From Malacoraja senta (taxonomy: Eukaryota): a stretch of DNA of 64,000 bases. Both the position numbers and the translations under genes were made by a program. The notes under the pieces were generated by a model that worked only from the letters and a program-made list of their open reading frames with translations, ran no database searches and had not been told where the DNA came from. Location: NCBI GenBank assembly GCA_038087875.1, contig CM075989.1:21020001-21084000 (forward strand), read 5' to 3'. Positions within the stretch are counted from its first letter, which is position 1. Each line of letters begins with the position of its first letter. Below, one piece after another: positions 5,217 through 53,799 of the stretch.

Positions 5217-6625
5217 CATAGATACATAGATACATAGAAAATAGGTGCAGGAGTAGGCCATTCGGCCCTTCGAGCCTGCACCGCCATTCAATATGATCAT
5301 GGCTGATCATCCAACTCAGTATCCCGTACCTGCCTTCTCTCCATACCCCCTGATCCCTTTAGCCACAAGGGCCACATCTAACTCCCTCTTAAATATAGCC
5401 AATGAACTGGCCTCAATGACCCTCTGTGGCAGAGAGTTCCAGAGATTCACCACTCTCTGTGTGAAAAAGTTTTTTCTCATCTCGGTCTTAAAGGATTTCC
5501 CCCTTATCCTTAAGCTGTGACCCCTTGTCCTGGACTTCCCCAACATCGGGAACAATCTTCCTGCATCTAGCCTGTCCAACCCCATAAGAATCTTGTAAGT
5601 TTCTATAAGATCCCCTCTCAATCTCCTAAATTCTAGCGAGTATAAGCCGAGTCTATCCAGTCTTTCTTCATATGAAAGTCCTGACATCCCAGGAATCAGT
5701 CTGGTGAACCTTCTCTGCACTCCCTCTATGGCTATAATGTCCTTCCTCAGATTTGGAGACCAAAACTGTACGCAATACTCCAGGTGTGGTCTCACCAATA
5801 CCCTGTACAACTGCAGTAGAACCTCCCTGCTCCTATACTCAAATCCTTTTGCTATGAAAGCTAACATACCATTCGCTTTCTTCACTGCCTGCTGCACCTA
5901 CATGCCTACTTTCAATGACTGGTGTACCATGACACCCAGGTCTCGCTGCATCTCCCCTTTTCCTAATCGGCCACCATTTAGATAATAGTCTGCTTTCCTG
6001 TTTTTGCCACCAAAGTGGATAACCTCACATTTATCCACATTATACTGCATCTGCCAAACATTTGCCCACTCACCCAGCCTATCTAAGTCACCTTGCAGTC
6101 CCCTAGCATCCTCCTCACAGCTAACACTGCCCCCCAGCTTAGTGTCATCCGCAAACTTGGAGATATTGCCTTCAATTCCCTCATCCAGGTCATTAATATA
6201 AATTGTAAATAGCTGGGGTCCCAGCACTGAGCCTTGTGGTACCCCACTAGTCACTGCCTGCCATTGTGAAAAGGACCAGTTTACTCCTACTCTTTGCTTC
6301 CTGTTTGCCAGCCATTTCTCTATCCACATCAATACTGAACCCCCAATACCGTGTGCTTTAAGTTTGTATATTAATCGCTTATGTGGGACCTTGTCGAAAG
6401 CCTTCTGAAAGTCCAGATACAACACATCCACTGGTTCTCCCCTATCCACTCTACTAGTTACATCCTCGAAAAATTCTATAAGATTCGTCAGACATGATTT
6501 ACCTTTCGTAAATCCATGCTGACTTTGTCCAATGATTTCACCACTTTCCAAATGTGCTGCTATCCCATCTTTAATAACTGACTCTAGCAGTTTCCCCACT
6601 ACCGATGTTAGACTAACTGGTCTGT
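5217..6625 (-). mobile_element. 5'-truncated CR1 LINE (1.4 kb) with reverse-transcriptase domain and one premature stop
   Basis: YRPVSLTSVVGKLLE, QHGFTKGKSCLTNL, YLDFQKAFDKVPH, GVPQGSVLGPQLF, KFADDTKL. Track ORFs 5898-6716 and 5316-5897 share a frame, split by TAG at 5898-5900. Microsatellite tail at 5217-5240. Confidence 0.97.
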
Positions 6626-7487
6626 ATGATAGGGATACACAGTGACTTCTATATGTTAAATTGTAATTTGATATGACAGACATTACAAATGTCAGCACAT
6701 GTGATCTAGGCTTCAAATCATGATCCTATTGAAAATGTATTTTTCCGCAACATGAAATTGTATACCTTTTTCAGATCTGTGCTCTGTTCCACTGTAGTGT
6801 ATGTTGCTCTCCAAGCCGATGTACCTCATGTACACGATGATTAGTCCTGCTCTTTCTGTCATAATACAACTTGAGGCAGTATTATCCAACCTCGCCCGTG
6901 CTCTGAAACATGCCTTTTATTGCTGCAGGGGCTTGAGTTCATTTTCGAGCGCGGGGACAGCATCTGGAAGCATTCCTTGCCTTCAATAACTAAAATGGCT
7001 AAAACAGAATGTATATATGAGACAGATTATACCAGAGGGGGACTGAAAATCTAAAACAATGTTGCAGAAATCTTAAAATATAATAACGTCATTCTCTGAG
7101 GCCAATATAATGAGTTGAAAACAATTCTTGAAGCAACTTGTTGCTTGATCGAATGGGAATATATCAAGGGGGCAATATTTTATGTTTGAAAAAAAGAAGA
7201 CTGGGTCGGAAAGGAAATGTGAGCGGAAGGGTAATCAGTATTGTGCCAGAACACAATACCCCTGGTAGGACGAGGGGGACATCAAGGGCACTGGAATTCA
7301 AAGGACATGATGCAGCTTGAGAACCAGTGGATGCAAACCAGATGACATGCAGAGTATTATTTTCACAGGGAAGTGAAGGGGCTGTCATATTAAAAATGAG
7401 AAGGACACACACCTGCTGCAAAGTTGTACCTCCTTCACTAATGCCAGGGCACATTAGGTGTGGCTTAAAAATGACGATTTATTCATT

Positions 7488-7710
7488 TCGAAGATAGACA
7501 CAAAATGCTGGAGTAACTCAGCAGGACAGGCAGCATCTCTGGAGAGAAGGAATGGGCGACGTTTTGGGTCGAGACCCGTGGGAGAAGGGTCTCGACCCGA
7601 AACGTCGGCCATTCCTTCTCTCCATAGGTGCTGCCTCACCCGCTGAGTTACTCCAGCATTTTGTGCCTACGTTCGATTTTACCAGCATCTGCAGTTGTTT
7701 CTTACACACA
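7488..7710. mobile_element. Fold-back Penelope-like terminal-repeat element
   Basis: Inverted arms gcatctctggagagaaggaatgggcgacgttttgggtcgagaccc / gggtctcgacccgaaacgtcggccattccttctctcc. Confidence 0.8.
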
Positions 7711-7934
7711 TGTAAGGTGACCATTTGATCCACTGTGTCTAAGCTGGACAAGGGTGGATCTATTTAGATTACTACCAGTTCCAATCTTTCAACATGTAAA
7801 AGAAAGAAACAAAATGCTGGAGTTACTCAGCAGGTCGGGCAGCATCTCTGGAGAAATTGGATAGGTGACATTTTGGGTTGGGACCCTTCTTTTAAGATGT
7901 AGGTCCAGTTACAAGTCATCAAGAGCTTCTCTGG

Positions 7935-8995: not shown

Positions 8996-9047
8996 TATTT
9001 TAGTTTTAAAGTTTAGATACAGCGCGGAAACAGACACTTCGACCCAC

Positions 9048-9485
9048 CGAAGATAGACACAAAAAGCTGGAGTAACTGAGCGGGACAGGCAGCATCTCTG
9101 CAGAGAAGGAATGGGTGACGTTTTGGGTCGAGAGTGTTCTTCAGACCTCTACCGGGCTGAGGCCAGGCGACAACTCTCAGACACCTCCCCCTACTTATCC
9201 TTGGAACATGATCCCACAGATGAGCACCAGGCCTTAATCTCAAACACCATTACTGATTTCATCACTTCTGGCTGTCTGCCTTCTACAGCCTCCAACCTTA
9301 TTGTTTCCCAGTCCCGCACAGCCCGTTTTTACCTTTCCCCCACAAACACAATTGCCCTGGCAGACCCATTGTTTCTGCCTGCTTCTGTCCCACGGAAATG
9401 ACTTCCACGTACCTCGACTCCATCCTATCGCCCCTGGTCCAATCTCTCCCGACCTATGTCCAAGACACCTCACATACCCCTTTGT
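9048..9485 (+). mobile_element. Penelope-like element: inverted terminal repeat (9048-9146) fused to RT N-terminal fragment
   Basis: DLYRAEARRQLSD...DPT...RTARFYL, frameshift, then HKHNCPGRPIVSACFCPTEMTSTYLDSILSPLVQSLPTYVQDTSH (PLE-type PKIHK/GRPIVS region). Interrupts a V-SINE tail. Confidence 0.85.
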
Positions 9486-9519: not shown

Positions 9520-9803
9520 ACCTTCGGCCCACCAAGTCCGCACTGACCCGCGATTCCTGCACATTAATACTATACTACACACACCAGAGACAATTTATAT
9601 TTATACCGAGCCAATTAACCTACATACCTGTACGTCTTTGGAGTGTAGGAGGAAACCGAAGATGTCGGAGAAAGCCCACGTGGACCCACGCGGTCACGGA
9701 CAAACTCTGTACAGACAGCACCCATAGTCGGGATCGAACCCGGGACTCCAGCGCTGCAAGCGCTGTAAGGCAGCAACTCTACCGCTGCACCACCGGGGCC
9801 GCC
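9520..9803 (-). mobile_element. V-SINE (tail remnant at 9000-9048)
   Basis: Full head and V-domain; subfamily with the gcttgcagc insertion in the tRNA region. Confidence 0.9.
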
Positions 9804-10464
9804 CAATATGTGACAATAATAAATCTAAACCTAAACCGAATTAAGATGCGCCATCTTTGTTAGTCCCACTTGCCCACGTTTAGCCCGTATATCTCCACAC
9901 CTTTCCTATCCAGATACCTGCTCAAATATCTTTTAAATGCTGTTATAGTAGCAACTGGTAGTTTGAACTCAGAGCTCATTTATGAATAATTAGTGGCTTC
10001 TTAAACTAAAAGTGATCCAAATATTTTAAGTTGTATATGTGATTCTTTGCTTGATTGTATATCTAAAAACATTGCAAACAAATCTTTCATTAGCAAGTCA
10101 TAATCTTCCTTCAGTGCTTTTTATATTAATGCTTGTATAATGTAATCATGCCATCCTGATGTATTTTATCTTAATTTTATTTCTCTTTAGTAATTTAACC
10201 ACTGTGAATTAGTAAGGCCTGGAAGATATTAAATCATCTTTGCATCTATGATTTTGCCACAGATGCAAAGATGATTTAAAAGTGCACCGACATACTCAAA
10301 GTGGAGATCAAACCATCAGACTATTTAGTAAGTGGAAAAAGATTTCCTTTCATTGCCTTTAATTCGGGAAGATTTTCAAAGAATTACTTAAAATAAAGTA
10401 ATTTGTTTTTAATTAGAGATTATTTAAAGAAACATTTCAAATATTTATATTAGACATATTAATC

Positions 10465-10840
10465 GTGGAGTTGCTGCCTCACAGCGTCAGAGACCCAGAT
10501 TTGATCCTGATCTCGGGTGCTGTCTGTGTGGAGTTTGCACATTCTCCCTGTGATCATGTGGATTTTATTCTGGTGCTCCGCTTTCCTCCCACATCCCAAA
10601 GACGTGTGTGTTTGTAGTTAAGTGACGTCTGTAAAATTCCTCCTAATGTGGGGAGTAGATGTGTAACTGGACCTACATCTTAAAAGAAGGGTCCCAACCC
10701 AAAATGTCACCTATCCAATTCCTCCTAATGTGGGGAGTAGATGGGATAACATAAAACCTAGTGTGAACGGGTGATCAATGGTTGACTTAGACTCAGTGGG
10801 CTGAAGGATCTGTTATCATGCTGTATCTCTAAATCAAACT
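10465..10840 (+). mobile_element. V-SINE carrying a templated insertion
   Basis: Head, V-domain and tail are present; foreign 59 bp at 10662-10720. Confidence 0.85.
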
Positions 10841-14004: not shown

Positions 14005-14828
14005 CACCGAGTCCACACCGACCAACGATCCCCGTACATTAGCACTCTCCTGCACACACGAGGGACAATTTACAAATATTAAACCCAATCAATCTTCCAA
14101 CCTGTATGTCTTTGGAGTGTGGGAGGAAACCGAAGATCTCGGAGAAAACCCACGCAGGTCACGGGGAGAACAATAGACAATAGGAGTAGGCCATTCGGCT
14201 CTTCGAGCCAGCCCCACCATTCACTGTGATCATGGTTGATCATCCACAATCAGTACCCCGTTCCTGCCTTCTCACCAGATCCCCTCTTAAGAGCTCTATC
14301 TAACTCCCCCTTGAAAGCATCCAGAGAATTGGCCTCCACTGCCTTCTGAGGCAGAGAATTCCACAGATTCACAACTCTCNNNNNNNNNNNNNNNNNNNNN
14401 NNNNNNNNNNNNNNNNNNNNNNNNNNNNNNNNNNNNNNNNNNNNNNNNNNNNNNNNNNNNNNNNNNNNNNNNNNNNNNNNNNNNNNNNNNNNNNNNNNNN
14501 NNNNNNNNNNNNNNNNNNNNNNNNNNNNNNNNNNNNNNNNNNNNNNNNNNNNNNNNNNNNNNNNNNNNNNNNNNNNNNNCAGAGAATTGGCCTCCACTGC
14601 CTTCTGAGGCAGAGAATTCCACAGATTCACAACTCTCTGGGTGAAAAAGTTTTCCTCATCTCCGTTCTAAATGGCCTACCCTTTATTATTAAATGTGGTC
14701 CCTTGTTCTGGACTGCTCCAACATCGGGAACGTACAAACTCCGTACAGACACCACCCATAGTCAGGATTGAACCCAGGTCTCTGGCGCTATAAGGCAGCT
14801 ACTCTACCGCTGTGCCATTATGCTGCCC
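14005..14828 (-). mobile_element. V-SINE interrupted by a CR1 3' fragment (14172-14730) spanning the gap
   Basis: SINE breaks at ggggagaac (14171) and resumes at gaacgtacaaactcc (~14728). Confidence 0.85.
14380..14579. other. Assembly gap (200 N)
   Basis: Run of N; identical 58-bp sequence on both sides. Confidence 1.
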
Positions 14829-14990
14829 TAAATTGATTGATTATTTATCAGATATAATCGGAAGGCATGAAAATATTTTAATCACATCATTAGAAATTGA
14901 CAAGTTTTGGAGCGTTCTGAAGCATTGGGTCACTCATTCCAATACAACGGCCATTAAATTAATATAAAATCCGGCTGGAATAGGTCACTT

Positions 14991-15217
14991 GTGTAAGAAG
15001 GAACTGCAGATGCTGGTTTAAACTGAAGATAGACACAAAAAGCTGGAGTAACTCAGCGGGACAGGCAGCATCTCTGGAGAGAAGGAATGGGTGACGTTTC
15101 GGTCAAGACCCTTTGTCAGTCTGAAGAAGGGTCTCGACCCGAAACGTCACCCATTCCTTTCTCTCCAGAGATGCTGCCATGTCCGCTGAGTTACTCCAGC
15201 TTTTTGTGTCTATCTTC
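14991..15217. mobile_element. Fold-back PLE-derived element with 14-bp TSD
   Basis: Two inverted copies of the terminal repeat; ggaataggtcactt at 14977-14990 and 15218-15231. Confidence 0.85.
15118..15152 (+). ncRNA. Minimal hammerhead ribozyme motif (type I-like)
   Basis: CTGAAGA-A-GGGT(ctcg)ACCC-GAAAC-GTC: CUGANGA and GAAA cores, stem II, palindromic ACGT in place of stem III, GUC cleavage triplet. Confidence 0.7.
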
Positions 15218-15677
15218 GGAATAGGTCACTTTCTGCGTTCAAAGTCCTGGGACTCATATGGTCAGTTTATCTATCCATCAATGAGGATTTATAGCAGTTA
15301 CGTTTGATGGCTTTACATCTCGGAATTCTAAGGCTATTTTGTGAAGGGGAAGGATGGCTACTGTGACAAAAATAAATCATCGACAGGCAACAGGAGGAGA
15401 GGCAACTGTATGTTTAGACCAAGCAGCTGCTGCCAGCTTTTAATCTCGTTATCTAACTGTAATTTGTCCACAATGCTTGAAATTCCTGTTACTATATTTA
15501 GTTATGCATATGGAGCGCTGAAGCCCTGTGCTGTAACTTAGTTAAGGTTCAAGCTACTTCAATTTGTACCATTGTTATAAAAGTCCATATTTGTCACGAT
15601 AACTGGTGTATTTTCAAGGGTGATCAAATAGAGGGTGATCTAATAGAGGGTGATCTAATAGAGGTGTATAAAATCAT

Positions 15678-15992
15678 GGGTGGTCACGGCGGCGCAGCGG
15701 TAGAGTTTGTGCCTTACAGCGAATGCAGCGCGGAGACCCGGGTTCGATCCTGACTACGGGTGCTGTCTGTACGGAGTTTGCACGTTCTCCCCGTGGCCTG
15801 CGTGGGTTTTCTCTGAGATCTTCGGTTTCCTCCCACACTCCAAAGACGTGCAGGTTTGTAGGTAATCGGCTTGGTAAATGTAAAAATTGTCCCCAGTGTG
15901 TGTAGGATAGTGTTGATGTACGGGGATCGCTGGTCGGCATGGACCCGGTGGGCCGAAGGGCCTGTTTCCACGCTGTATCTCTAAAATAAACT
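15678..15992 (+). mobile_element. V-SINE, full length
   Basis: A/B-box head, V-domain, tail gggccgaagggcctgtttccacgctgtatctctaaa. Confidence 0.92.
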
Positions 15993-16029
15993 AATAGATC
16001 GGATAGATTCACTGACAAGGGGTCAAGAT

Positions 16030-16555
16030 TCCTAATTTTGAGGAAGGACGTCTTGCTATTGAGGAAGTGCAGCGTAGGTATACCGGGTTAACTCCAGGGA
16101 TGGCTGGACTGTCATATGATGAAAGAATGGAGCGATTGGACTGTATTCACTGGAATTTAGAGGTATGAGAGGGTATCTAATAGAAACATATAAAATTATT
16201 AAGGGATTGGACACGCTAGATGCAGGAAAATTGTTCACGATGTTGGGAGAGTCCAAAACAGGGGCCACAGTTTAATAATAAGGGTAGGCCATTTAGAACT
16301 GAGATGAGGAAAGACTTTTTCACCCAGAGAGTTGTGAATTTGTAGAATTCTCTGCCTCAGAAGGCAGTGGAGGCCGATTCACATGGATGCATTCAAAAGA
16401 GAGTTAGATAGAGCTCTTAGGGCTACCAGAGTCGAGGGATATGGGGTGAAGGCAGGAACGGGGTACTGATTGTGGATGATCAGCATGATCACATAGAATG
16501 GCGGTGCTGGCTCGAAGGGCCGAATGGCCCACCTCCTGCATCTATTGTCTATGTA
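16030..16555 (+). mobile_element. CR1 LINE 3' fragment
   Basis: LRKDVLAIEEVQR...; 3' UTR ending ctattgtctat. Confidence 0.9.
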
Positions 16556-16954
16556 TTTACGTATGTATCTACGATCTCAAGGGTGAAAATTTATAGACTT
16601 TAATAGTGGAGCGATCCAAATTGTTAGCAATTTATGATGACTCTGAACTTCTCTTTCCCTTCTCTTGCTCCCGTCTGAGCTATCAGGAGAGTTGAGTCTG
16701 CTGGGACTCTAAACCTTGGAGGGTGGGAAAGGGAAATGAAACATGGGGCCATGTCTGTGGTTCTGAAAGAAGGGAGGTGGGGGGGGGGGGAGGTTACAGA
16801 AGGATCTCAGTTGATCAGATGAAGAGAGAAAGGAACAGACGGGTTGTGGGTTACCCGAAATTGGAGAATTTGGTGTATCTGCGGTCTCTTGGGTCTCATC
16901 TTACTTCTCAAGTCTGTCGCTGGCGTTTGAATTTACTGCAGAGGTGCAGTGATC

Positions 16955-17340
16955 ACAGGTACAGAAGTTTGAAAATGCACACCTACAGATTCTGGAACAG
17001 TTTCTTCCCAGCTGTGAACGAGCAACTAACCATTCACACTGAGTGCGGCCCTGACCTCCCATCTACCTCCTTGGAGACCTTCGAACTTGAATCTTGAGTT
17101 GGACTTTACTGGACTCTATCGTGTACTTAAAGTTATATCCTACATCTGTAAACTGTGGACAGGCGGCATCTTGGAGGGAAGGAATGTGTGACGTTTCGGG
17201 TCGAGACCCTTCTCCAGACCTTCATTCACATCTGTCCACTGTGGACGGCTGGATTGTAATCATGTATAATCTTTTTGCTAACTGGTTAGCATGCAACAAA
17301 AGCTTTTCACTGCACGTCACAATAATTAACTAAACTAATT
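16955..17340 (+). mobile_element. Rex/Babar 3' end with nested PLE repeat fragment (17155-17220)
   Basis: RYRSLKMHTYRFWNSFFPAV, then 3' UTR gcatgcaacaaaagcttttcactg...(aacta)n. Confidence 0.65.
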
Positions 17341-17499
17341 CTGTCAAGCATGATGTTGTTCAATTAGTTACCAGGCTTCAATATATTAATAATTCAGGCA
17401 CTGCATGAGTGCTGTGGAGCACTGTGGCGGATCGAAGACAAAGTCAACCTTGGTCTTTGTACATGACTATAGGAGCAGCAAAATCCACCTGGACTTCTT

Positions 17500-17825
17500 G
17501 GGCGGCATGGTGGCGCAGGTGGCAGTGTTGATGCCTCACAGCGCCGGGAAGCCCAAGTTCAATTCTGGCCTCGGGTGCTGTCTGTGTGGCGTTTTCACGT
17601 TCTCCCCTGGGACCCCCTCGGGTTTCCTCCAGGTGCTCTGGTTTCCCCCCACATCCCAAAGGCGTGCGGTTTTGATAGTTAATCGGCCCTCTGTAAATTG
17701 CCCCTAGTGTGTAGGCAGTGGATGCGAAAGTGAGATAACAAAGAACTAGTGTGAACGGGTGATGGATGGTCAGCATGGGCTTAATGGGCCGAAGGGCCTG
17801 ATTTTATGCTGTACCTTTCATTGAA
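17500..17825 (+). mobile_element. V-SINE, older subfamily
   Basis: Diverged head, V-domain and tail. Confidence 0.85.
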
Positions 17826-18157
17826 TTTTAAAAAAGTGATGGAGGAACTCAGTGGGCCAGGGAGCATCTGTAGAAAGAATGGACAGACGTCAGTCTGAGA
17901 AAAGGTTCCAAATGGAAGTATCAAAGTCTATACACGGACCCATGGATGCTGGTTGACCCACTGAGTTCCTCCAGCACTTTGTGTTTTGCTCAGGATCCAG
18001 CACCTGCAGTTCCCTGTCCCTCTCTGAAATGTCAGCCCGCTCTTTCCTCACAAATGTCCACTTCCCATTCCCCAACTATCCGGATTGTCCGCGGCTGGGT
18101 GAATCAAGTCTACGGGAATCTAGATATCTGGGATATCTTCCCTTGTGTTGGTGCTCA

Positions 18158-18462
18158 TATCATCTTCATCACCGGCGGTCACTCGAGACGAGTATGACTG
18201 TCCTCTCCTCTCCATAGGGTTAGGGTGGATTCCCTATATGGAGGACGCCTGTGTGTGACTTTGTTTAACGTGGGGAGACAGGTTCACGGACAGCCACCAC
18301 ACAGTCCTTGACAGATCTGGGTCAGGATCCAGTGGCATGGAGTCCAAGACGACCGGGGACCCTTTTCTGCTGCAGCCTTCGTCCGCCTTCCCAGCCGTTG
18401 TGATGCTCCACAAAAGTCTGCCATCGTCCTCCGCCTGTTCCACCGTTGAGGTCTTTGTTGGT
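18158..18462 (-). mobile_element. Probable non-autonomous RTE-related retroposon
   Basis: Minus strand ends gtcatactcgtctcgagtgaccgccgg(tga)n-like tail; GC-rich and unlike other window families. Family assignment is from memory. Confidence 0.4.
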
Positions 18463-19119
18463 GCTCACCACCTCATTAAAACATTCGAAGGGGATTTTCC
18501 CCCATGGTTGTGCTGGTGCCAGTAATACGGAGATTCTGCCAACCCAGCCGTTAAGGTCAGCTGGTCACGCATTTTGTTCTTGCAACTCCTGGGAATATTG
18601 CTTCACACACAGTGGGACTCGCATTCCGCCAGAGGTTTCTGTATGAAGGAGAAATAGTATTTTTTGCTTAAAAAGTGACGGCAAAACATTACCGCAATTT
18701 ACAATGGAAGGAAGCTTGAAATCATGGGACATAGATTATTAATTTTATTCTTTGTGCTTAATACCACAAGAACATTTATCTTACCCGCTGCAATAAAGAC
18801 TTAGGAATCAAACCCACACTTTCTGCCTTCAGAGCAGCTTTTAATTTGGATATTAACTAGAAAAATAGCAAAAGAACATTAATCACTAACGTTAATGATT
18901 TTTTTTGTCTCTTCAGGGACTCATTGTACTTGTGCATAGAACTCCGTTAAGTTCCCATACCATTATTACGCCTTATAAACAGAGCTAAGGAGATGGTCTA
19001 ATCGGGGCTAGAGCGTAGGCAGGCACAATATACAGGACAGGACAAGGGGATGTAGAATTAATATTAAACTTTGGGGATTTTTTAATGTTATCAGGAAGCA
19101 CTTCTTCAGATTAGTAAAA

Positions 19120-19810
19120 ATAGTCATAGAGTCACAGAGCACGGAAACATGGCCCCTGGTCCAACTCATCCATGCTGACCAAGACGTCCCATCTAAGCTA
19201 ATCCCCCTTGCCCATATTTGGCCCATATCCTTCTAAACCTTTCCATCCATGCACCTGTCCAATTGTCTATTGACCTGCCTCAGAGGGTGGTAGAGGCCAG
19301 TTCTCTAGATACGTTCAAGAGAGAGCTAGATAGGGCTCTTAAAGATAGCGGAGTCAGAGGATATGGGGAGTAGGCAGGAATGGGGTACCGATTGGGGATG
19401 ATCAGCCATGATCACATTGAATGGCGGTGCTGGCTCGAAGGGCCGAATGGCCTACTACTGCACCTATTGTCTATTGTGTATTGACTGCTGTTATAGTCCC
19501 AGCCTCAACTACCTCCTCTGGCAGCTCGTTCCATATACTTTGAGTGAAAAAGTTACCTCTCACATTCCTATTAGATATCCTCTCCCCCCCCCCCCCCCCC
19601 CCCCCCCCCCCACTTCCCCCTTAAACCTATGTCCTCTGGTTCTTAATTCCTTTACTCTGGGTAAAAGACATTCACCCTATCAATTCCCCTCATGATTTTA
19701 TACACCTCTGTAAGATCACCACGTGGCTTACTGTGCTCCAAGGAATAAAATGCTAGCTTGCCCAATCTCTACCTATAGCTCTGGCCCTTGAGTCCTGCCA
19801 TCATGTGGCA
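19120..19810. mobile_element. CR1 (-) fragment interrupted by CR1 (+) 3' end (19272-19478)
   Basis: Minus-strand tail (gtcataga)n at 19122; plus-strand LPQRVVEASSLDTFKRELDRALK and UTR; minus strand resumes at ~19490. Confidence 0.8.
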
Positions 19811-20231
19811 AAATCTGAAAATCTTTTCCATAAAAAGCTGAGGAGGCTAAATTGGAAATATCATAATCCTACTTTATTAGCCAAGTATGTTTTGCAACAT
19901 ATGAGGAATTTGTTTTGCAGTTTTCTGTTATCTTCAGTATGATGTCCAAGTCAAATGATCCACAGTAAAAGTACAAGAAGCTCCCGTCATTTTCCCTGCC
20001 TTGCCTATATTGGTTTAGGAATCAAGAGATGATTGTCTGAAAAAACATGATGAAGTAATTCATTATCACGTTAATGGAGCTTCAGCATGGGAATTATATA
20101 GATTGTTCAATGTGATTGCAATGCCACATATAATACTCATCCTTTGAAAATCGCAAACATTATTATTGAAACTATTTATCTTTCTGCAACTAATCCCAAC
20201 AGAAATTGTAAACAGAACAATTATTACATTG

Positions 20232-20575
20232 GAGATAGACACAGAATGCTGGAGTAACTCAGCGGGACAGGCAGCATCTCTGGATAGAAGGAATGGGTGA
20301 CGTTTCGGGTGGAGACCCTTCTTCAGACTGAGAATCAGGGGAGAGGGAGACACAGATTTGGAAGGTTAAGGTGTGAGGATGAGAGATCAAAGGAGACGAA
20401 GGTCAAAGGAAATGAAGAATAGATCATTGTTAGCGAGGGGAAGTTGACAACGAGGCATACAAAGATAAAATTCAATCAGGGAGGACAGTCAGACGTCGGA
20501 GAACTAAGGTGGGGGAGGGATGGGGAGAGAGGGAAAGCAGGGTTACTTGAGATTAGAAAAATCAATATTCATGTT
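20232..20575 (-). mobile_element. Penelope-like element 3' portion (ORF end, pyrimidine-rich spacer, hammerhead repeat)
   Basis: Minus strand reads MNIDFSNLK* (~20572-20543), then the spacer and ctgaagaagggtctccacccgaaacgtc (20326-20299). Confidence 0.8.
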
Positions 20576-20659
20576 GATTTTTCCTCTCTGCCAAAGAGAT
20601 CTTCAGGATGCAAGGAAGCCTTTTGTTAGCTCATTTTATATTCACTAGGTTTTCCAAAA

Positions 20660-20797
20660 ATGTATTGGTTAGTAAGGGCGTCAAAGATATGGGAAGATGG
20701 CAGGAGAATGGGGTTGAATGTGAAAATTGAGCAGCCATGATTAAATGGTGGAGCAGACTTGATGTGCTGAATGGCCTAATTCTGCTCCTGTGTCTTA
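20660..20797 (+). mobile_element. CR1 3' tail fragment
   Basis: gccatgattaaatggtggagcagac...gaatggcctaattctgctcct. Confidence 0.7.
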
Positions 20798-21784
20798 CAA
20801 CACAACTTTATTTATCCCAGGAGGGAATTTGAACTGCCAACAGTGATAAAACACAAAAAAACATGAAACATGAGATTAAGTGATGATTGGAAAGGATTGG
20901 TATGTGCAAAGATTAGGGGGGGGGGGGTGGAGTCAGTCTACCCCACAGCAGAGGTGTGTTTGTTTGGATACAATCTTCTGAGCAACTTGGGGATACTGGA
21001 CTGTGTTGACTGCTTGAAACAAATTCAACAGAGTGGGCTTCTTTCTATTACGGTTCATACCCTTCCCAAAAGGAACCCATTAGTTTCATCATTTTTTTTT
21101 CCGCCTTCCATCACAGTGAGGAATGTGGAGGAGTCACTGTGGCGGATGTTTATGTTAAAATGTATTTTGTGTATCTTGTTGCTTTTTTACTCGTATGGAT
21201 TTGGTCAGGATCGAACCTGGGACTCTGGCGCTGTGAGGCAGCAACTCTACTGCTGCGCCACCGCGCAGTGGTTCGCTCTATGCTCATTTCTAAGCAAGAA
21301 ATGTTTTGTGAGTTCCTGCTTTTAAAAAACACTTTTAGTTGGCAAAAGGCTAAGGGCCGCAAGATTTCCCTGTGTGACGGTCAATGTTCTTACATTCAAT
21401 AACTTTGTGTTCTCACAGTGGGAAGTCTTTCATTTCCCTCTCCACCCTGTTGCAATGATTCAAGGCTAGTGCATCAATTGCTGTTACCATTGACCACTAT
21501 TGAATGGTCAGTGGTAGGATGGAGGGAGAGTGATGTTGTATGTGGTGTAAATAAAATGAGTTTAGCGTTGCTTGATGGTCGGTGTGGACTCAGTATGCTG
21601 AGGGACTGCTCCGACTATGATCGTATGATCCTGACATTTAACAATGATAAAATATCAATTAACCAGTTGAAAAATAATTACATTTAAACCATAACAAAAC
21701 AAAAACATTTAGAACACATTAAAAAAATAAGAAACTAAAGCAAATATTAATTAACAATTCCAAGTTGGTGTCAAAGCCAGGTCT

Positions 21785-22020
21785 CTCTCACAGAGAGTGG
21801 TGAGTCTGTGGAATTCTCTGCCTCAGAGGGCGGTGGAGGCAGGTTCTCTGGATGCTTTCAAGAGAGAGCTAGATAGGGCTCTTAAAAATAGCGGAGTCAG
21901 GGGATATGGGGAGAAGGCAGGAACGGGGACTGATTGGGGATGATCAGCCATGATCATATTGAATGGCGGTGCTGGCCCCAAGGGCCGAATGGCCTACTCC
22001 TGCACCTATTGTCTATTGTC
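21785..22020 (+). mobile_element. CR1 3' fragment
   Basis: QRVVSLWNSLPQRAVEAGSLDAFKRELDRALK; (ATTGTCT)n tail. Confidence 0.9.
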
Positions 22021-22569
22021 TCTCATTGTGTGTTAGTCCCAGAAGTGGAACTACAATCACTCATTACATTTGGTCCACTCTTTTAAACATCTACTCCAAC
22101 AGCAGGCTTTATCTTGCACTAAACGTTGCTCCCTTTATCATGTATCTGTACACTGTGGACGGCTCGATTGTAATCACTTATAGTCTACCCGCTGACTGAT
22201 TAGCACGCAACAAAAAGCTTTCCACTGTACCTCGGTACATGATAAAGTATACTGAACTAAAAGTATTAATGGCCTGCTGATCCTACTTTCTCACAATCGT
22301 TCATCTCCATTTGAAGAAGACCTTCCTTGTTCACTGGGGTAGGATTGCAGGTCGATTCCTCGGACTAAGTGCTGAGCAGCTCAGCAGTCTTTGTTTTCTA
22401 CCCATGTGTGGGTTTCAACATCAGAACATAGCCAGGGAGATCCTCAGCAAGAGATAGACACAAGATGCTTGATTAACTCAGCGGGTCAAGCTGCATCTCT
22501 GGAGAACAAGGGTAAGGTGGTGTTTCAGGTTTCAAGGAGTCTTCTTCAGACTCTTCATCAGCCAGAGAG

Positions 22570-22868
22570 AGGCACAGTGGCGGCAGCGGTAAAGTTGCTG
22601 CCTTACAGCACCAGGTTTGATCCTGAGTATGGGTGCTGCCTTTACGGAGTTCGTACGTTCTCCCCGTGACCTGCATGGGGTTTCTCCCAGATCTCTGATT
22701 TCCTCCCGCACTCTAAAGACGTACAGGTATGAAGGTTAATTGCATGGTATAATTGTAAATTGTCCCTTGTGTGTATAGGATAGCGTTAGTGTACAGGATC
22801 GCTGGTCGGCGCGCACTCGGTGGGCCGAAGGGCCTGTTTCCGTGCTGTATCTGTCAACTAAACTAAAA
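22570..22868 (+). mobile_element. V-SINE, full length
   Basis: Head, V-domain and tail; preceded by a PLE repeat at 22450-22552 (-). Confidence 0.9.
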
Positions 22869-23631
22869 CATTGAACTATAGGGGCATCTGAACTCCAGAG
22901 CTGCCAGCAGCGGACAAGTCCTGTCCCAATGTTCTCTCTCGGAACAGTCAGCTTTCTGTGAGGAATGCTTTTACTTGTGAGAGGATAAGTCTGACTTTCT
23001 AAAGTGAGTTTCTGGCAACATTTCAGCTTGGCGCTGTTGTGTCTCAGTCATTTGCAGCGACACATTTTTTAATAGCTCACCACCAGTCTTCCTCTTCTCA
23101 CAGGAAATTGCCTTTCATTCCCCTTTTCTCACGACGAGGCCTCAGCTTCTCACTGTGGCTTACGATCGAGATTCTATTTCTTGTGACAACTTGCCACTTC
23201 CGCCTCACTTATTTCTCGGGAGTCCGCCGCTCAGCCTCTCTCTCTCCTCAAGGTGTTGCCCATGACTTGCTCACTTTTGCAAAGAAATTCTGCACAGATT
23301 CACAGCAAAGCTCTTGATTCGAACTGAAGCTTGACAAGGTGCTTGCAGTTTTGACAGCAATTCCACGCAATCTTCTTAGCATGAAGCCGGGAGGCTCGGA
23401 GCAACTATTTGTGGCCTGTGATCCCTGGGGCATCCACCGTTTGTTGATTTGTGCCATTGAAATCATTCCGCTTGCTCCCCTTAACAAAGCCAAGTCAACT
23501 CAAGTCAAGTCAAGTCAAGTTCAGCTCATTGTCACATTGTCATATGCACCAGTGGTGGGGTACAGGTACAATGAAAAGCTTGCTTGAATGTGACTTTTAC
23601 ACAATTGTGTGGTGTATATCAGGATTTAGGG

Positions 23632-23857
23632 GCCAGGGAGGAATCGCAGATGCTGGTTTACACCAAAGATAGACACAAAATGCTAGAGTAACTTAGCAGG
23701 TCAGGCAGCATCTCTGGAGAAAAGGAATAGATGACATTTCGGGTCGAGACCCTTCTTCAGACTGGTCCAAAGGGTCTCGACCCGAAACATCACCTATACC
23801 TTTACTCCAAGGATGCTGCCTGACCCGCTGAGTTACTCCAGCATTTTATGTCCATCT
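23632..23857. mobile_element. Fold-back PLE-derived element with ~13-bp TSD
   Basis: Inverted arms; tcagRatttaggg at 23619-23631 and 23858-23870. Confidence 0.8.
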
Positions 23858-23904
23858 TCAGAATTTAGGGTGTAGGTTTTGGGATTCACCTAACTTTCTT
23901 TTCA

Positions 23905-24060
23905 ATAGAGAATAGACAATAGACAATAGTTGCAGGAGCAGGCCATTCGGCCCTTCGAGCCAGCACCGCCATTCAATGTGATCATGGCTGATCATCCACA
24001 ATCACTACCTGTTCCTGCCTTCTCCCCATATCCCCTGACTCCGCTATCTTTAAGAGCTAT
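23905..24060 (-). mobile_element. CR1 3' tail
   Basis: (agacaat)n then gcaggagcaggccattcggcccttcgagcc. Confidence 0.85.
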
Positions 24061-24076
24061 CTTTCACACAGAGGTT

Positions 24077-24232
24077 TTGTTTAAGAAAGAACTGCAGATG
24101 CTGGAAAAATCGAAGGTAGGCAAAAATGGTGGAGGAACTCAGAGGGTGAGGCAGCATCTATGGAGCGAAGGAATAGGTGACGTTTCGGGTCGAGACCCTT
24201 CTTCAGACTGAATTTCTCCAGCATTTTGTCCA
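24077..24232 (-). mobile_element. PLE terminal-repeat element with short fold-back arm and 16-bp TSD
   Basis: Intact hammerhead core on minus strand at 24179-24206; ctttcacacagaggtt at 24061-24076 and 24233-24248. Confidence 0.85.
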
Positions 24233-24699
24233 CTTTCACACAGAGGTTGGTTGGTGTATGGAACGAGGTGCCAGAGGAAGTAGTTGCGGCAGGTGCTACA
24301 ACAACATACAGTACATAGAATGTAGAAGAATACAGCGCAGGAACCGAGCTTTCTCCCCACAATATCTATGCTGAACAATGATGGCAGGAAACTAATCTCA
24401 CCTGCACATGATCCATATCCCTCCATTCCTGTATATCCATGTGCCTATCTCAATACCTCTTAAACGCCAAAGGCTCCAAAGAGATCTTGGATAGGTGCAT
24501 GGATAGGATAGATTTAGAGGGACCAAATGCAAGCAAATGGGACGTGTAGATGAGGCACTTTGCTCAGCATGGACTTGTTGTGCCAAACGGCCTGTTTCTG
24601 TGCTGTATAATTCTATGACTATCAAAGAATGCAAAAACAGATCATATTTTAATGTGTTGGTCATTAGGACATTACAATGCAGCACAGCGGTAGAGTAAT

Positions 24700-27470: not shown

Positions 27471-27929
27471 GCACAGATATAGAGGAAAACACAAAGTCCT
27501 GGAGGAACTCAGCCAGGTCAGGAGCATCTGTGGAAGAATGGACATATGACGTTTCAGGTCATTCTGAAGAAGATTTTGTCTGCCCATTCCCTCAATGTGC
27601 TGCCAGACCTGCTAAGTTGCTCCAGCACTTGTTTTTTTTTTGCTCAGGATTTCTGCATCTGCAGTTGCTTGTGTTACCATTTTACTACTTCACTGCAAAA
27701 TCTTCTCAAGAATCCCAGTTTTGAAGAAGTTCTCCCTCTCCAACAGATTGCAGAAGCGCCTCGATCCGAAACGTCATTTGTCCGTTCCCTCCACAGATGC
27801 TGTCTGACCCACTGAGCTCCTTCCAGAATCTTGTGCCTCAACATTATACATTGTGGGCCTATTCACGCCTGTACTGCTCACCACTATTTTATCTCAAAAG
27901 ACATGTACTGCAGTAGTATTGTAGCCAGT

Positions 27930-28121
27930 GTGTAAGAAGGAACTGCAGATGCTGGTTTACACCGAAGATAGACACAAAAATCTGGAGTAACTCAGCGAGT
28001 AAGGCAGCATCTCTGGAGAAAAACAATAGGTGACGTTTCTTGTTGAGACCTTCATCAGACTACAGACTACAGTCAGCTGAAGGGTCTCGACCCGAAACGT
28101 CACCTATTCTTTCTCTCCACC
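27930..28121. mobile_element. Fold-back PLE-derived element with 12-bp TSD
   Basis: attgtagccagt at 27918-27929 and 28122-28133. Confidence 0.8.
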
Positions 28122-28833
28122 ATTGTAGCCAGTATGGTATCTTGATAGATCTTAAATATCGCAACCTGTGTGTGTGGAGGCCTGTGATTCAAAGCAACAT
28201 TCAGCTGTAGTACTTTATCATTCAACTTTTGGAGACTGATTGGTCTTTAACAGAGGGCAATGTAACAGGGAATGGTTTGAGTTTTTTGTAGCTGGCCGGC
28301 TATTCTTAATCAAAACAAAAAAATATGGTTTCTGTTACTGGTGCAGTCAAAATAAAAATAAAATGGCCCTGGAAAGGAAAACCTGACAGCCATCTTTATC
28401 AAAGACGCACAGTCAGGTGAGCAGGATTTATGAGGTAGAACGTACGGCTTGTTATAGTTCAGGGTGAGGGGAGTATCTAAACCTATTTGCTGTTGCTTAT
28501 GTAGGAACAGTTTCATTACTGGGTTTATTGATTGCCAATCCTTGACATGAAGGAAAAACGTCATCTACTAGGTTCCTCATTGCACAGGTCTCCTGTTGAC
28601 GAAGCTGTTTACATTGGACTTACAAGGTGCTTGGGCTGGAAAGGGTGCAGAGAAGTGTGTAGGAAGGAACCTTAAAGCATGGATAGTAGGAGAATTAGGG
28701 TAGAGTTTTGGGGCATGTGAAAGAGAGGAGAGTACATAGAACATAGAACAGTACAGATAAACAAAAAGCAGGAGCAACTCAGCTGATTCAGGCAGCATCG
28801 CTGGAGAAAAGGAATAGGTGACATTTCAGAGGA

Positions 28834-29253
28834 ATCTTTGTAAAGATTCTCTGCTGAAGAAGTCTGAAGAAGGGACTCGACAAGAACTGTCACCTGTTTA
28901 AGAAGGAACTGCAGATGCTGGAAAATCGAAGGTAGACAAAAATGCTGGAGAAACTCAGCGGGTGCAGCAGCATCTATGGAGCGAAGGAAATAGGCAACGT
29001 TTCGGCCCGAAACCCTGAAGGAAATAGGCAACGTTTCGGGCCGAAACCCTGAAGGAAATAGGCAACGATTCGGGCCGAAACCCGAAACGTTGGCTATTTC
29101 CTTCGCTCCATAGATGCTGCTGCACCCGCTGTGTTTCTCCAGCATTTTTGTCTACCTTCGATTTTCCAGCATCTGCAGTTCCTTCTTAAACAGGTGACAG
29201 TTCTTGTCGAGTCCCTTCTTCAGACTTCTTCAGCAGAGAATCTTTACAAAGAT
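28834..29253. repeat. Near-perfect 420-bp palindrome of PLE repeat plus flank, with central 34-bp x3 tandem
   Basis: Arms at ~28834-29004 and ~29082-29253 are reverse complements with very few mismatches. Confidence 0.95.
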
Positions 29254-29624
29254 GTTCACTGTTTCAGTGGTTCTTTATGAATGAATGTATGATACTTTAT
29301 TATTACGTGACATCTGCAGGAGCAATATTGTCTACAGTAGTCTCTGATCACTGACTCATAATGTCACACTCTTAATTCATTGACTTCATTGAGAGACACA
29401 GCATGGAAATAGGCTATAATGAAAAGGAACTGCAGATGCAGGTGTGTACTAAAGATAGACGCAAAGCGCTGGAGTAACTCAACGAGTCAGGCAGAATCTC
29501 TTGAGAAAATGGATAAGTGACGTTTCGAGTTGGGACCCATCTTCAGTCTTCTTTTGTGCCTGTCTATGGAAATAGGCTGGTTACATAATTGACCACTGTA
29601 AATTGCAAGCCAGTGAGATGGGAA

Positions 29625-31210: not shown

Positions 31211-31469
31211 ATGAGAAAGCCTGAACATACGAGGCACTTATGAAGAGTTCTTGACAGGTTCAAGAGCTTGTACACTTTTTTTGAACTTCGAGGTCCCTGA
31301 GAGAACCTTGCACAGTAGGAGAAGCAGCAAAACCTATCATTTAAATTGTACTTTGAGCGATTATGTGCTTCATTAGCACTAATTTCACCTCAACAACTAA
31401 TCTAGCACAGATGATTGCCTTCCGATCTTTGGAAATCCCTGAATCTTGATCAGGCACACTAGTGCAATG

Positions 31470-31672
31470 TTTAGCAAGGAACTGCAGATGCTGGTTTACA
31501 CCAAAGGTAGACACAACATGCTGGAGTAACTCAGCGGGACAGGCAGCATCTCTGGAGAGAAGGAATGGGTGACTTTTCGGGTCTGAAGAAGGGTCTCGAC
31601 CAGAAACGTCACTCATTCCTTCTCTCCAGCGATGCTACCTGTCCCGCTAAGTTACTCCAGCATTTTGTGTCT
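31470..31672. mobile_element. Fold-back PLE-derived element
   Basis: Inverted arms; hammerhead core at 31583-31610 (+). Confidence 0.8.
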
Positions 31673-32139
31673 GCATTAGCGCTCTGCTTTTGGCTACAAG
31701 AACGTATCGACTAATGTTGTAGCCTAAACCAGAGGCAAGTCCAAAAATGATGATGAAGATACTTTATTGTCACATGTACCTAGGTACAGTGAAATTCTTT
31801 GTTTTGCATATAATCCAGTAAAATTATAGTAGATGAGCACAATCATAGATAAGTGCAAAAGTGCAATGATTGTAGTGCAATTCCAGACTTCACCGAGACA
31901 GTTCACAAAGAGTCGCCATGTTTCTGGTGCCCACAAAGTTTCAAAGTTCCTAAGAGTGCAGTCTTCTCTTGACCTTAAAGGCCCGTTGTCCTGGCAACAC
32001 CGATCCTCTCCTCCATCCACCGCCATTTTGAAAACGGCCCCTTGTCCAGCGTCCGCTGTGGTTGCCGACTCCCTGCTATACAATAGTGCTGGCATGGTAA
32101 TCTGATTAATAATGTTTGGTGAGAAGAAGGAGTTTCCAA

Positions 32140-32785
32140 AGGGTTCTGAGGGGAAACTTTTTATAAATTGGCAAGCTGTTGGTACCCGGAAAGGAGCTGC
32201 CAGAAGAAATGAGGGAGGCATTCAATAGTCAAGGCACCGAAGGATATGCTCCTAATAGGTGTAAAAGACACTTAGAAAATATTTGGACAGGTATGTGGAT
32301 AGGAAAGGTTTAATGGGATATGGGGCAAATGCAAGCAGGTGGGACTAGCGTAGATGGGGCAACTTGGTCAGCATGGACAAGTTGGGCTGAAGGTAGACAC
32401 AAGATGCTGGAGTATCTCAACGGGTCAGGCAGCATCTCTGGAGAAAATGCATAAGTTACACTTCGGGTATCTTTGGTGTAAACCAGCACTTGCAGTTTAG
32501 TTTAATTTAGATCAATGCGGAAACAGGCCCTTCAGCCCACCGGGTCTGCGATCCCCACACATTAACACTACCCTACACACACTATGGACAATTTTACACC
32601 TATACAAAGCCGATTAACCTGCAAACCTGTACATATTTGGAGTGTGGGAGGAAACCGAAGATCTCGGACAAAACCCACGCAGGTCACGGGGAGAATGTAC
32701 AAACTCCGTACTGACAGCATCCATAGTCAGGATCAAACCCATGTCTCTGGCGCTGGAAGGCAGTAGCTCTGCTGCTATTCCACTG
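32140..32785. mobile_element. CR1 remnant (+, 32140-32392), PLE repeat (32390-32495), V-SINE (-, 32495-32785)
   Basis: Adjacent matches to the three window families. Confidence 0.75.
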
Positions 32786-33862: not shown

Positions 33863-33944
33863 ATAAACTAAACTCACAACTCTGAAGACATTGTTAAAGA
33901 TAAATTATGTAGAGAAGCTTTATGTAAAATATGAGATCACAGCT

Positions 33945-34260
33945 GGCCCTTGCTGTCCCTCTCTCTCAATCCCTCCCCCTTCCCAGTTCTCCGACTAGTC
34001 TGGCTGTCTCTGAATACATTTTATCTCTGTTTGCTTTGATGTCGCCTTCTCCTAGCTAACAAAGATCTATTCTACATTTTCCTTGATCTCCACCCGCTTT
34101 GATGTCTCATTCTCACACCTTACACTTCCTTATCTCTGTATCTCCCCCTCCCCTGAACTCTCAGTCTGAAGAAGGGTCTCGACCTGAAACGTCACCCATT
34201 CCTTCTCTCCAGAGATGCTGCCTGTCCCGCTGAGTTACTTCAGCATTTTGTGTCTATTTC
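33945..34260 (+). mobile_element. Penelope-like 3' region with hammerhead repeat
   Basis: Reverse complement of 20232-20540 and 58762-59065; core ctgaagaagggtctcgacctgaaacgtc at 34166-34193. A further copy lies at 34618-34718. Confidence 0.8.
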
Positions 34261-34842
34261 TGGAATTTTAATGTTTTTGATCAATGAATTGCAAAGAAAT
34301 GTTTAAAAGGAGATAAGAGTGTCTGATGTTCCTCAAATACAACAGGGTTTTTAGCATTTTGGTCCATTATTAGCTTATCTAAAACAAGAAGTAGAGGGTG
34401 CTGGACATAGTTAGCAGGTCAGGTAGGTAGGACAGAGAGAAATGGAGTCAACATTTCAAGTTGATGTTGAAAACTACAGGGAAACAGCAATTAGACCATA
34501 ACTGAAGGAGAGGTTGCTGGATGTAATGTAAACGGGCCATGTTGCATCTCCTGTTCGCTTTATAGGCCGGTATCAGTTGTCGCTTGTAAATGAATCTGCT
34601 GCCATTCAAACATTCACCCAGTCTGAAGAAGGATCTCGAATCGAAACGTCACCTGTTACTTTTCCCCTGAGATGCTGCCTGACCCGCTGAGTTACTCCAG
34701 CTCTCTGTGTCCATCTTCTTTAAATAAAATATATCAATTGGAGAGACATTGTTTTGCCTCAGAATACCTGTTCAGTGGGTTTTCATTGATAGGTGTCAGC
34801 ACCGAGCTTTTATCCTTGGTACCGATGATATTCACCAAGCAC

Positions 34843-38005: not shown

Positions 38006-38044
38006 ACAACTGCATTGCTTGAGCCAATTTAATGTCACTCAGAA

Positions 38045-38255
38045 TATAGACACAAAAAGCTGGAGTAACTCAGCGGGACAGGCAGCATCTCTGGAGAGAA
38101 GGAATGGGTGGCGTTTTCTTCAGTCTGAATAAGGGTCCCGACCCGAAACGTCACCCATTCCTTCTCTCCAGAGATGCTGCCCGTCCCGCTGAGTTACTCC
38201 AGCTGTTTGTGTCTATCTTTGGTTTGAACTAGCATCAGCAGTTCCTTCCTACACA
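38045..38255. mobile_element. Fold-back PLE-derived element
   Basis: Inverted arms; core mutated to CTGAATA at 38125. Confidence 0.8.
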
Positions 38256-40570: not shown

Positions 40571-40660
40571 TGAACAAGTTGAGGTAGCTTTTTTAAAACT
40601 TGAACAACAGAAGAACACTTTGGTATCACGGACTTGAAAGAGACACAATTAAAACCATTG

Positions 40661-40831
40661 GTAGACAAATATGCTGGAGAAACGTAGCGGGTGAGGCAGC
40701 ATCTATGGAGCAAAGGTCTCGACCCGAAACGTCCCCTATTTCCTTCGCTCCATAGATGCTGCCTTACCCGCTGAGTTTCTCCAGCATTTTTGGCTACCTT
40801 CGATTTTCCAGCATCTGCAGTTCCTTCTTAA
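40661..40831. mobile_element. Fold-back PLE-derived element with 16-bp TSD
   Basis: acaattaaaaccattg at 40645-40660 and 40832-40847. Confidence 0.85.
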
Positions 40832-40974
40832 ACAATTAAAACCATTGAGCGGTTTAAAAATAAATCTTTTTTGAGCATACAATTATCGTAATTAAGGGCT
40901 TACGTTGCCGCCTAATTTTATATGATTTGATATGTTTTCATTTATAAGGCTTCTTGCAGCAATTAATTCATAAG

Positions 40975-41432
40975 GCAGAGACACAGGGAATTGCATATGC
41001 CAGAATCTTGAGTACCACACAAAGTGCTGGAGTAACTCAGCGGGTTAGGCAGCATCTGTGAAGGAAATGGAAAGGTGACGTTACAGGTTGGGATCCTTCT
41101 TCACACTATTTGTAATCTGAAGAAGGGTCCTGACCCAAAACGTCGCCTGTCCATTTCCTCCCCAGTTGCTCTCTGACCTGCTGAATAACTCCAGCACTTC
41201 ATGTTTTAATTGAAAAGACACCCTGATCCTAAACTAACAAACCCAATTCTATCATTATAAAGTGTAGGAAGGAACTGCAGTTGCCAGTTTAAATTGAAGA
41301 TAGACACAAAATGCTGGTGTAACTCAACGGGATAGGCAGCAGCTCTGGAGAAAAGGAATGGGTGACATTTTGGGTCGAGACCCTTCTTCAGACTGGTCTC
41401 CAGAGCCGTTACTCCAGCATTTTGTGTCTATC
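40975..41432. mobile_element. Two further fold-back PLE-derived elements (40975-41205, 41262-41432)
   Basis: Inverted arms of the same repeat, more diverged. Confidence 0.7.
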
Positions 41433-50454: not shown

Positions 50455-51090
50455 GAAAAGACACAAAGTGCCGGAGTAACTCAGCGGGTCAGGCAGCATC
50501 TCTGGAGGGAATAAGTAAGTAAGTTTATTGGCCAAATATTCACATACAAGGAATTTGCCTTGGTGCTCCGCCCACAAGTAACAACATGACATACAGTGAC
50601 AGTTACGAATGACTCAGAAAACACTAAACATTAATAATAATAAAACATTAATGATAAAACACCATTGGTCAAGCATGTGAACCAACAAAATACCAGATCA
50701 AATGGTATCACGGCTGCCCAGATCAATGGGTAAGACGTTTCAGGTCAGGACCCTTCTTCAGGCTGTAATGGGGGTGGGGGGGTGGGGGGGGGGTAGAATG
50801 CTGGAAGAGAGGTGTGGTGGGACTTAGGTGGGTGAGTGATAGGTGGATACAGGTGAGGGGGATGTATGATGGGCTGATCGTTGGATAAATGCCAGTGATG
50901 GAAAGACAGAAGGTGTGAGATAATAGAGAGATAAGGCACAACATGTGAAGCTGGAGGAAAGGATATAGGTAGAAGGGGAAACATGAGGTGGGATAAATGG
51001 GGACAAGGGTGGACAGCCACGGGGCGAGAGGGAAGGGAGGGGGGGGGGTGTTGTAGCTTAGTTATCTAAAATTGAAGAATTGAATGTCCT
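50455..51090 (-). mobile_element. Old Penelope-like 3' region interrupted by a LINE tail (50512-50722)
   Basis: Core gacgtttcaggtcaggacccttcttcag at 50734-50761; ORF end DIQFFNFR* near 51062-51088. The insert is homologous to 54320-54455. Confidence 0.65.
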
Positions 51091-53589: not shown

Positions 53590-53795
53590 TGTGGGAAGGA
53601 ACTGCAGATTCTGGTTTATGCCGAAGAGAGAAGCAAATTGCTGGAGTAACTCAGCGGGTCAGGCAGCATCCATGGATAGAGTGAATGGGTAACGTTTCGG
53701 GTCGAGACCCTCCTTCAGACTGAGAGGCAGGGGAGAGAGAAAGGAGAGATATGGAAGGGTAAGGTGTGAAAATGAGAGATCAAAGGGGACGAAGT
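53590..53795 (-). mobile_element. PLE terminal repeat plus spacer
   Basis: Matches 20232-20400. Confidence 0.75.
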
Positions 53796-53799
53796 TTAA

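Follow-up and report, generated by a model that had tools for sequence, protein, structure and literature searches.

Insertions of Penelope-like elements (PLEs) have been described as carrying an inverted, 5'-truncated copy and a tail of 30-40 bp on one end (PMC8557442), and inverted pseudo-LTRs (pLTRs) with a 31-bp tail, target-site duplications (TSDs) of 9-10 bp and palindromes at the inverted junctions are also in print (PMC3846280); the PLE promoter has been placed within the pLTR (PMC2377424). In vitro, the Anolis element Poseidon PAc uses two reverse transcription start sites that bound the tail, cuts and extends both target strands, takes AT-rich targets, and can dispense with hammerhead cleavage (PMC11167929). 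How the inverted ends and tails of PLEs are formed is still treated as open (PMC8557442, PMC11167929). Minimal hammerhead ribozymes (min-HHRs) occur in Schistosoma as pairs on opposite strands 100-700 bp apart, and the D. virilis min-HHR has a helix I of 2 bp (PMC4209133). Retrozymes are defined as head-to-tail repeats, and metazoan non-LTR retrozymes have been reported from one chondrichthyan genome (PMC7229834; bioRxiv 10.64898/2026.07.22.740005).

We analyzed small fold-back insertions in a 64,000-bp window (the whole stretch of DNA studied, numbered from its first letter). These hairpins look like the smallest form of the known PLE insertion pattern, made fresh at each site, and not like a new self-spreading element. 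ORF-less two-arm PLE stubs of skates or sharks did not appear in the literature searched, a search that left most subscription journals, Repbase and Dfam outside. The locus at 14977 has the following features, with consensus positions numbered from the T that precedes the hammerhead core:

14977..14990, + strand: left TSD, 14 bp, exact repeat of 15218-15231
14991..15124, - strand: tailed arm, read as an antisense PLE pLTR end, consensus -3 to ~132
14991-~15024, - strand: tail of the tailed arm, ~35 bp
15116..15124, no strand: centre junction on a natural 9-nt quasi-palindrome belonging to both arms (9-bp overlap of the arm alignments)
15116..15219, + strand: tail-less arm, consensus -3 to ~97-99
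15121..15148, + strand: predicted minimal type I hammerhead-like core (CUGANGA, 5-bp stem II, GAAA, palindromic stem III, GUC; stem I of 2 bp)
15218..15231, + strand: right TSD, exact repeat of 14977..14990

The two arms of this locus show 1 difference in 70 over consensus 29-100. A 200-N assembly gap at 14380-14579 lies 400 bp upstream and is flanked on either side by the same retroelement 3' sequence. A search of the window with a profile of its own copies found 56 arm matches, a density of ~0.9 per kb, and the family covers 6,251 of the 64,000 bp. DNA pattern scans of viral, metagenome and prokaryote genome contigs gave 0 matches and added no loci. Fifteen loci with facing arms were hand-picked and read base by base, each arm being aligned to the consensus; the orientation is head-to-head at all 15, and divergence between paired arms ranges from 1 to 28%. 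These loci include, besides 14977:

7489..7709, no strand: arms from different subfamilies; TSD none found
23619..23870, no strand: 13-bp TSD (1 mismatch), 5-bp junction filler
24061..24248, no strand: 16-bp TSD, tail-less arm just ~22 bp
27918..28133, no strand: 12-bp TSD, short-repeat filler, second arm to consensus 47
28834..29253, no strand: near-perfect fold-back, both arms tailed, 170/172 bp identical
29403..29578, no strand: 13-bp TSD, second arm ~14 bp; missed by the earlier reading
31468..31675, no strand: TSD none found
38042..38255, no strand: TSD none found
40645..40847, no strand: second subfamily, 16-bp TSD, 5-bp junction overlap
40986..41206, no strand: old and diverged, no TSD above null
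41262..41432, no strand: 12-bp filler, 25-bp second arm

An earlier, sequence-only reading of this window had proposed five insertions of ~160-230 bp flanked by TSDs of 12-16 bp, and we recovered all five duplications at the coordinates it gave. They are exact at 14977/15218 (14 bp), 24061/24233 (16 bp), 27918/28122 (12 bp) and 40645/40832 (16 bp), and inexact at 23619/23858 (13 bp, 1 mismatch); the inserts measure 227, 156, 192, 171 and 226 bp, respectively. A sixth TSD, exact and 13 bp long, was found at 29403/29566. Random position pairs given equal slack reached a score of at least 12 in 0 of 149 cases and a score of 10 in 1 of 149; the 23619 pair, at 10, is borderline on score alone, and its position coincides exactly with the element ends. 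TSDs are thus present at 6 of the 15 two-arm loci, with lengths of 12, 13, 13, 14, 16 and 16 bp, and the same search against random pairs gave none above null at the other nine. Four additional fold-backs named earlier (7488, 31470, 38045 and 40975) do exist as such, each lacking a TSD above null. Extending the search to 29 further intervals yielded one candidate, 17142/17228 (19 bp, 2 mismatches), a direct repeat within which 17142-17246 holds a single arm shortened at both ends (consensus 0-63).

The arms end at two preferred places. Among the 56 matches, 3' ends are bimodal (25 at consensus 84-104, 20 at 122-137, 2 between and 9 below 64), so that the outer end of the short arm clusters ~35 nt inside that of the long arm. 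The claim that one arm is complete and the other variably truncated therefore stands as to asymmetry and fails as to random truncation, given this clustering of short-arm ends. At 13 of the 15 two-arm loci the tail is on one arm only (both arms 1/15, neither 1/15), matching the canonical PLE trait of a 30-40 bp tail on one insertion end, and on sequence grounds we take the asymmetry to be the known PLE tail. At 32387-32495, an inverted tail-region piece of ~20 bp precedes a tail-less arm, making this a fold-back whose tailed arm is tiny.

A second canonical PLE trait, the inverted 5'-truncated head-to-head copy, is seen at all 15 two-arm loci and at 9047-9475, where an arm adjoins coding sequence. 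The features that bear on this link are:

9047..9146, - strand: inverted tail-less arm directly adjoining a PLE ORF fragment
9144..9475, + strand: frameshifted PLE reverse transcriptase (RT) fragment, including a GRPIVS motif and the region ahead of it
20227..20590, - strand: single arm with ~240 bp of upstream pyrimidine-rich UTR
33931-34263, + strand: similar UTR-bearing copy
58756-59080, - strand: similar UTR-bearing copy
53584-53807, - strand: similar UTR-bearing copy

The second half of the RT fragment has 674 relatives at E<=0.001 in a HMMER protein search; the first gave no match in a word-indexed protein search, and by tblastn both halves match long relatives, with E down to 5e-31. Named relatives include the whale shark and a stingray, as would be expected of an elasmobranch host. 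In ten long relatives scanned, RVT_1 was found in 7 and GIY-YIG in 8, with GIY-YIG C-terminal to the RT. Because the arm joins an RT fragment whose relatives carry both RT and GIY-YIG, we read it as the pLTR end of a canonical PLE, possibly a Neptune-like one. The window itself holds the RT fragment beside the arm, with no GIY-YIG sequence and no full-length element (pLTR-ORF-pLTR) in its 64 kb, and the arm-ORF link is made up of one junction (9146), structural signs and a weak ORF-end resemblance. For the latter, the peptides that terminate upstream of three UTR-bearing copies look by eye like the ends of PLE ORFs; a C-terminal PLE profile from 18 relatives missed these ends, and the regular expression that matches them was built from the same three peptides and is not independent. 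The pyrimidine-rich upstream sequence, up to ~240 bp, is common to four single copies. Two diverged, outward-facing arms ~600 bp apart at 50713-51492, both with separate pyrimidine-rich sequence upstream, may together form a longer inverted unit that belongs to an older PLE family. A 64-bp inverted duplicate (7850-7913 and 10662-10725, 98% identity, 2.8 kb apart) spans a junction of unrelated sequence with an arm start.

Compared with the canonical EN+ PLE units described in PMC3846280, PMC8557442 and PMC2377424, the units here have the same head-to-head arms, one-arm tail, short TSD, junction palindromes and microhomology, and, in relatives, an RT with C-terminal GIY-YIG. They differ in consisting of two terminal arms with no ORF, in having TSDs of 12-16 bp (8-10 bp in the rotifer examples), in their abrupt 5' stop at the hammerhead boundary, and in their very high density. 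The suggestion of an undescribed system is not supported, given the inverted pLTRs, one-end tail and 9-10 bp TSDs, and the opposite-strand min-HHR pairs, already reported; the alternative offered alongside it, that these are extreme truncation products of a PLE, is supported by the tail pattern, the unique junctions described below and the RT-fragment link. The two end classes resemble the start sites that bound the tail in Anolis PAc, and AT-rich targets are common to both; two-arm stubs are not described in the parts of PMC11167929 available.

The repeat had been called a hammerhead, and a motif scan found a hammerhead-like core in 11 family copies, with a stem II of 4-5 bp and a palindromic stem III of 2 nt, in keeping with the minimal type I motif that canonical PLEs carry in the pLTR. 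Stem I has just 0-2 bp in 10 of the 11, and Rfam gave no match at gathering score and no hammerhead among 13 matches with E<=10 over 14900-24300. Sub-threshold Rfam matches to miRNA-type hairpins were rejected as generic hairpin matches. The core agrees with the PLE min-HHR of PMC4209133 in its type I minimal form, the unpaired base on the 5' side of stem II, G10.1-C11.1, the palindromic 15.2-16.2 and the predominance of solo motifs; it differs in that the pairs here are directly fused. The accessible text of that paper yielded no elasmobranch case. The computed fold of the 14977 hairpin is -170 kcal/mol, and freeing the core is predicted to cost 24 kcal/mol there as against 3-5 in two single arms, indicating that in this model the hairpin buries the core.

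The 5' ends show a comparable preference: 25 of the 56 arms start at consensus -3 to +2, just 5' of the core, even with 25 nt of flank open to further alignment upstream. In a hand listing, 18 of these 25 retain the AG before the core, with nothing further upstream in common, and the upstream UTR is carried by only 6 of the 56. We take the site to match the initiator consensus YYANWYY, and a transcript possibly starts at this hot spot. A pyrimidine tract and CAG precede the site, giving it the look of a splice acceptor as well, and an intron ends at helix I in D. virilis (PMC4209133); a spliced template, with an intron ending at the core, is accordingly a rival account of the hot spot, against which stands the failure to see a common upstream exon among the 25 arms. 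Hammerhead cleavage was rejected as the cause, because cleavage would fall 3' of the core, which the arms retain.

We estimate at about 0.8 the probability that the hairpins are dead-on-arrival insertions, each produced once by the RT/GIY-YIG protein of a PLE. The observed TSDs of 12-16 bp would come from a staggered cut by the putative endonuclease in AT-rich DNA. Reverse transcription would begin at one of two points within the pLTR RNA, separated by ~35 nt, yielding tailed and tail-less ends; the two end classes are observed here, and initiation at two sites is suggested by the Anolis PLE in vitro. About half of the cDNAs would run off after 100-135 nt at the observed fixed point just 5' of the core, which may be the 5' end of a transcript starting in the upstream pLTR. 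The second, inverted arm would be added in one of two ways, by snap-back of the first cDNA or by the use of the other DNA end as a primer on a second RNA, and the two ends would be joined by the 0-9 bp of microhomology or the short filler that we observe, often at a quasi-palindrome. Longer cDNAs from the downstream pLTR would produce a like structure with UTR or ORF inside, as at 9047-9475, and the hairpins themselves would not be templates for further copies.

Both routes to the second arm probably occur, and we weight them almost evenly, leaning slightly to two-RNA priming; each is backed by one locus. At 7488 the arms fall in different subfamily clades (FastTree support 0.855 for the clade with the right arm), and two templates are therefore needed, though this locus, which lacks a TSD, could instead be two separate insertions. 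At 28834-29253, the near-identical arms are both tailed and ~60 bp of an older target copy is repeated in inverted form, as snap-back of a target-attached cDNA, or 3' transduction, would produce. The centre of this locus also carries a 34-bp x3 slip. The surrounding interval, 28752-29253, is a young second-subfamily fold-back within an older copy, the rest of whose arm is missing.

What is less ordinary in this window is the 5' hot spot, the mixed-subfamily arms, the target-copying locus and the tail-to-tail joints described below. Two-arm insertions this small, present with intact TSDs and at a density of about one arm per kb, form a natural data set for the formation of PLE ends and tails: mixed-subfamily arms speak to two-template priming, inverted target duplications to snap-back, and tail-to-tail joints to re-priming, and the hot spot predicts a transcript start. 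Hairpin stubs may also be misfiled as MITEs by annotation tools and, if transcribed, could hypothetically be a source of double-stranded RNA.

The alternative that survives best, although we consider it unlikely, also makes the hairpins fresh at each site and draws them from a dedicated, non-autonomous, SINE-like PLE RNA of ~135 nt with its own source loci. The common start of 25 of the 56 arms, the scarcity of the UTR (6 copies) and the existence of several subfamilies speak for such an RNA; against it, subfamily A variants are common to the short arms, the UTR-bearing copies and the arm beside the RT fragment. We mapped four public runs, out of 22 listed, to one arm: three DNA-contig runs, from three other genomes, and one polyA library. 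None of the four covers the left flank at 14822-14865, so they say nothing for or against an empty insertion site. In the polyA library, 19,168 of 7,335,232 reads fell on the arm, the two strands about equally, and 97% of these run into unlike sequence, a pattern that fits read-through. This one library showed no pile-up of read beginnings or ends and no discrete RNA; polyA selection would miss circles.

In the DNA runs, at least 268,525-340,156 contigs per run carry the arm. Loose ends pile up at the tail end, 14990, in all four runs among the rows listed, and continue into AT-rich, unlike flanks; a pile at 15026 is partly due to private mismatches in the reference arm. The listing covers 15 joint rows, with 475 more joint rows and 860 loose-end rows lying beyond it; in 13 of the 15 a tailed end meets an inverted tail-less one with nothing between them, tail-to-tail, at 6-53 contigs per position per run, or about single-copy depth, in all three DNA-contig runs, and hundreds of contigs in the three other genomes have such joints. 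The one-off reading does not predict these joints without an added step, and they count against it. They run from 14989-14990 to reference positions spread over 15024-15042 and not to one site; the spread suggests independent events, whether insertions into older copies or re-priming from a strand still being extended. PMC3846280 names a tail-to-tail arrangement as an outcome of self-priming on a sense template. Within the window, no tailed end has a tail-to-tail joint at positions 80-98. A more doubtful proposal than the dedicated RNA would make the run-off products a semi-independent mobile class of elasmobranchs, in which a ~135-nt transcript beginning at the hammerhead boundary is snapped back or copied at both ends of the target, and hairpin ends serve again as primers or are circularised, giving direct tail-to-tail multimers able to seed further copies; were it true, 10^5 or more priming events by PLEs would be recorded in the genome, which would show the second-strand step directly.

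Improbable, and less favoured again, is the idea that the hairpin itself replicates as a non-autonomous, retrozyme-like unit through circular or multimeric RNA copied by PLE proteins. A circle or concatemer would give the tail-to-tail joints, which recur in 3 of 3 DNA-contig runs among the rows listed; the other two listed joints are head-to-tail, with 9-34 contigs per row, and the family's density is high. Against these points, the centre junctions are all different, 15 of 15, whether in where the arms end, in their overlap (3-9 bp) or in filler, the outcome that the sequence-only reading had itself set as refuting a self-propagating family. Since the arm centre is naturally quasi-palindromic (TCAG-T-CTGA), independent events would produce some shared junctions, a trap in any such test. 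In the listed rows from the other genomes, the loose-end consensus past the centre retains the quasi-palindrome and agreement then fades, so no single continuation dominates. The window holds no whole-unit tandem or head-to-tail array, and no head-to-tail repeat with two or more same-sense hammerheads, the retrozyme trait. The spread of the tail-to-tail joints, the predicted cost of freeing the core in the hairpin, and the even strands, missing pile-up and 97% read-out of the polyA library, blind as it is to circles, weigh in the same direction. Metazoan non-LTR retrozymes (PMC7229834; bioRxiv 10.64898/2026.07.22.740005) are likewise non-coding, with a type I hammerhead and a PLE-pLTR origin, but they form head-to-tail tandems that contain two or more ribozymes of the same sense and have circular RNA, whereas here there are single inverted pairs with a hidden core. 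A self-propagating retrozyme-like family, as had been suggested, is not supported.

Chance adjacency of single arms, later rearrangement or assembly artefact is very improbable: the arm density, the nine loci without a TSD and the near-perfect palindrome at 28834-29253 would allow it, but a single TSD brackets both arms at six loci, all 15 pairs are head-to-head, and paired arms differ from each other. A MITE, that is, a DNA transposon derivative with terminal inverted repeats, would likewise be small and non-coding with inverted arms and TSDs, but it is refuted by the variable TSD length and by non-matching termini (the outer ~35 bp are on one end only), with the many single arms and the PLE RT link also against it. 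The reverse-transcription origin that had been proposed is supported by the variable TSD length and the asymmetric ends.

The hairpins lie among other repeats. Reading frames with RVT_1 (E 5e-33) occupy 5316-6725 on the - strand, in an element that we take to be CR1/L2-like, and many 3' fragments are scattered across the window. An abundant repeat of ~280 bp, possibly akin to a shark/ray tRNA-derived SINE, is present at 9521-9810 and in ~20 other places.
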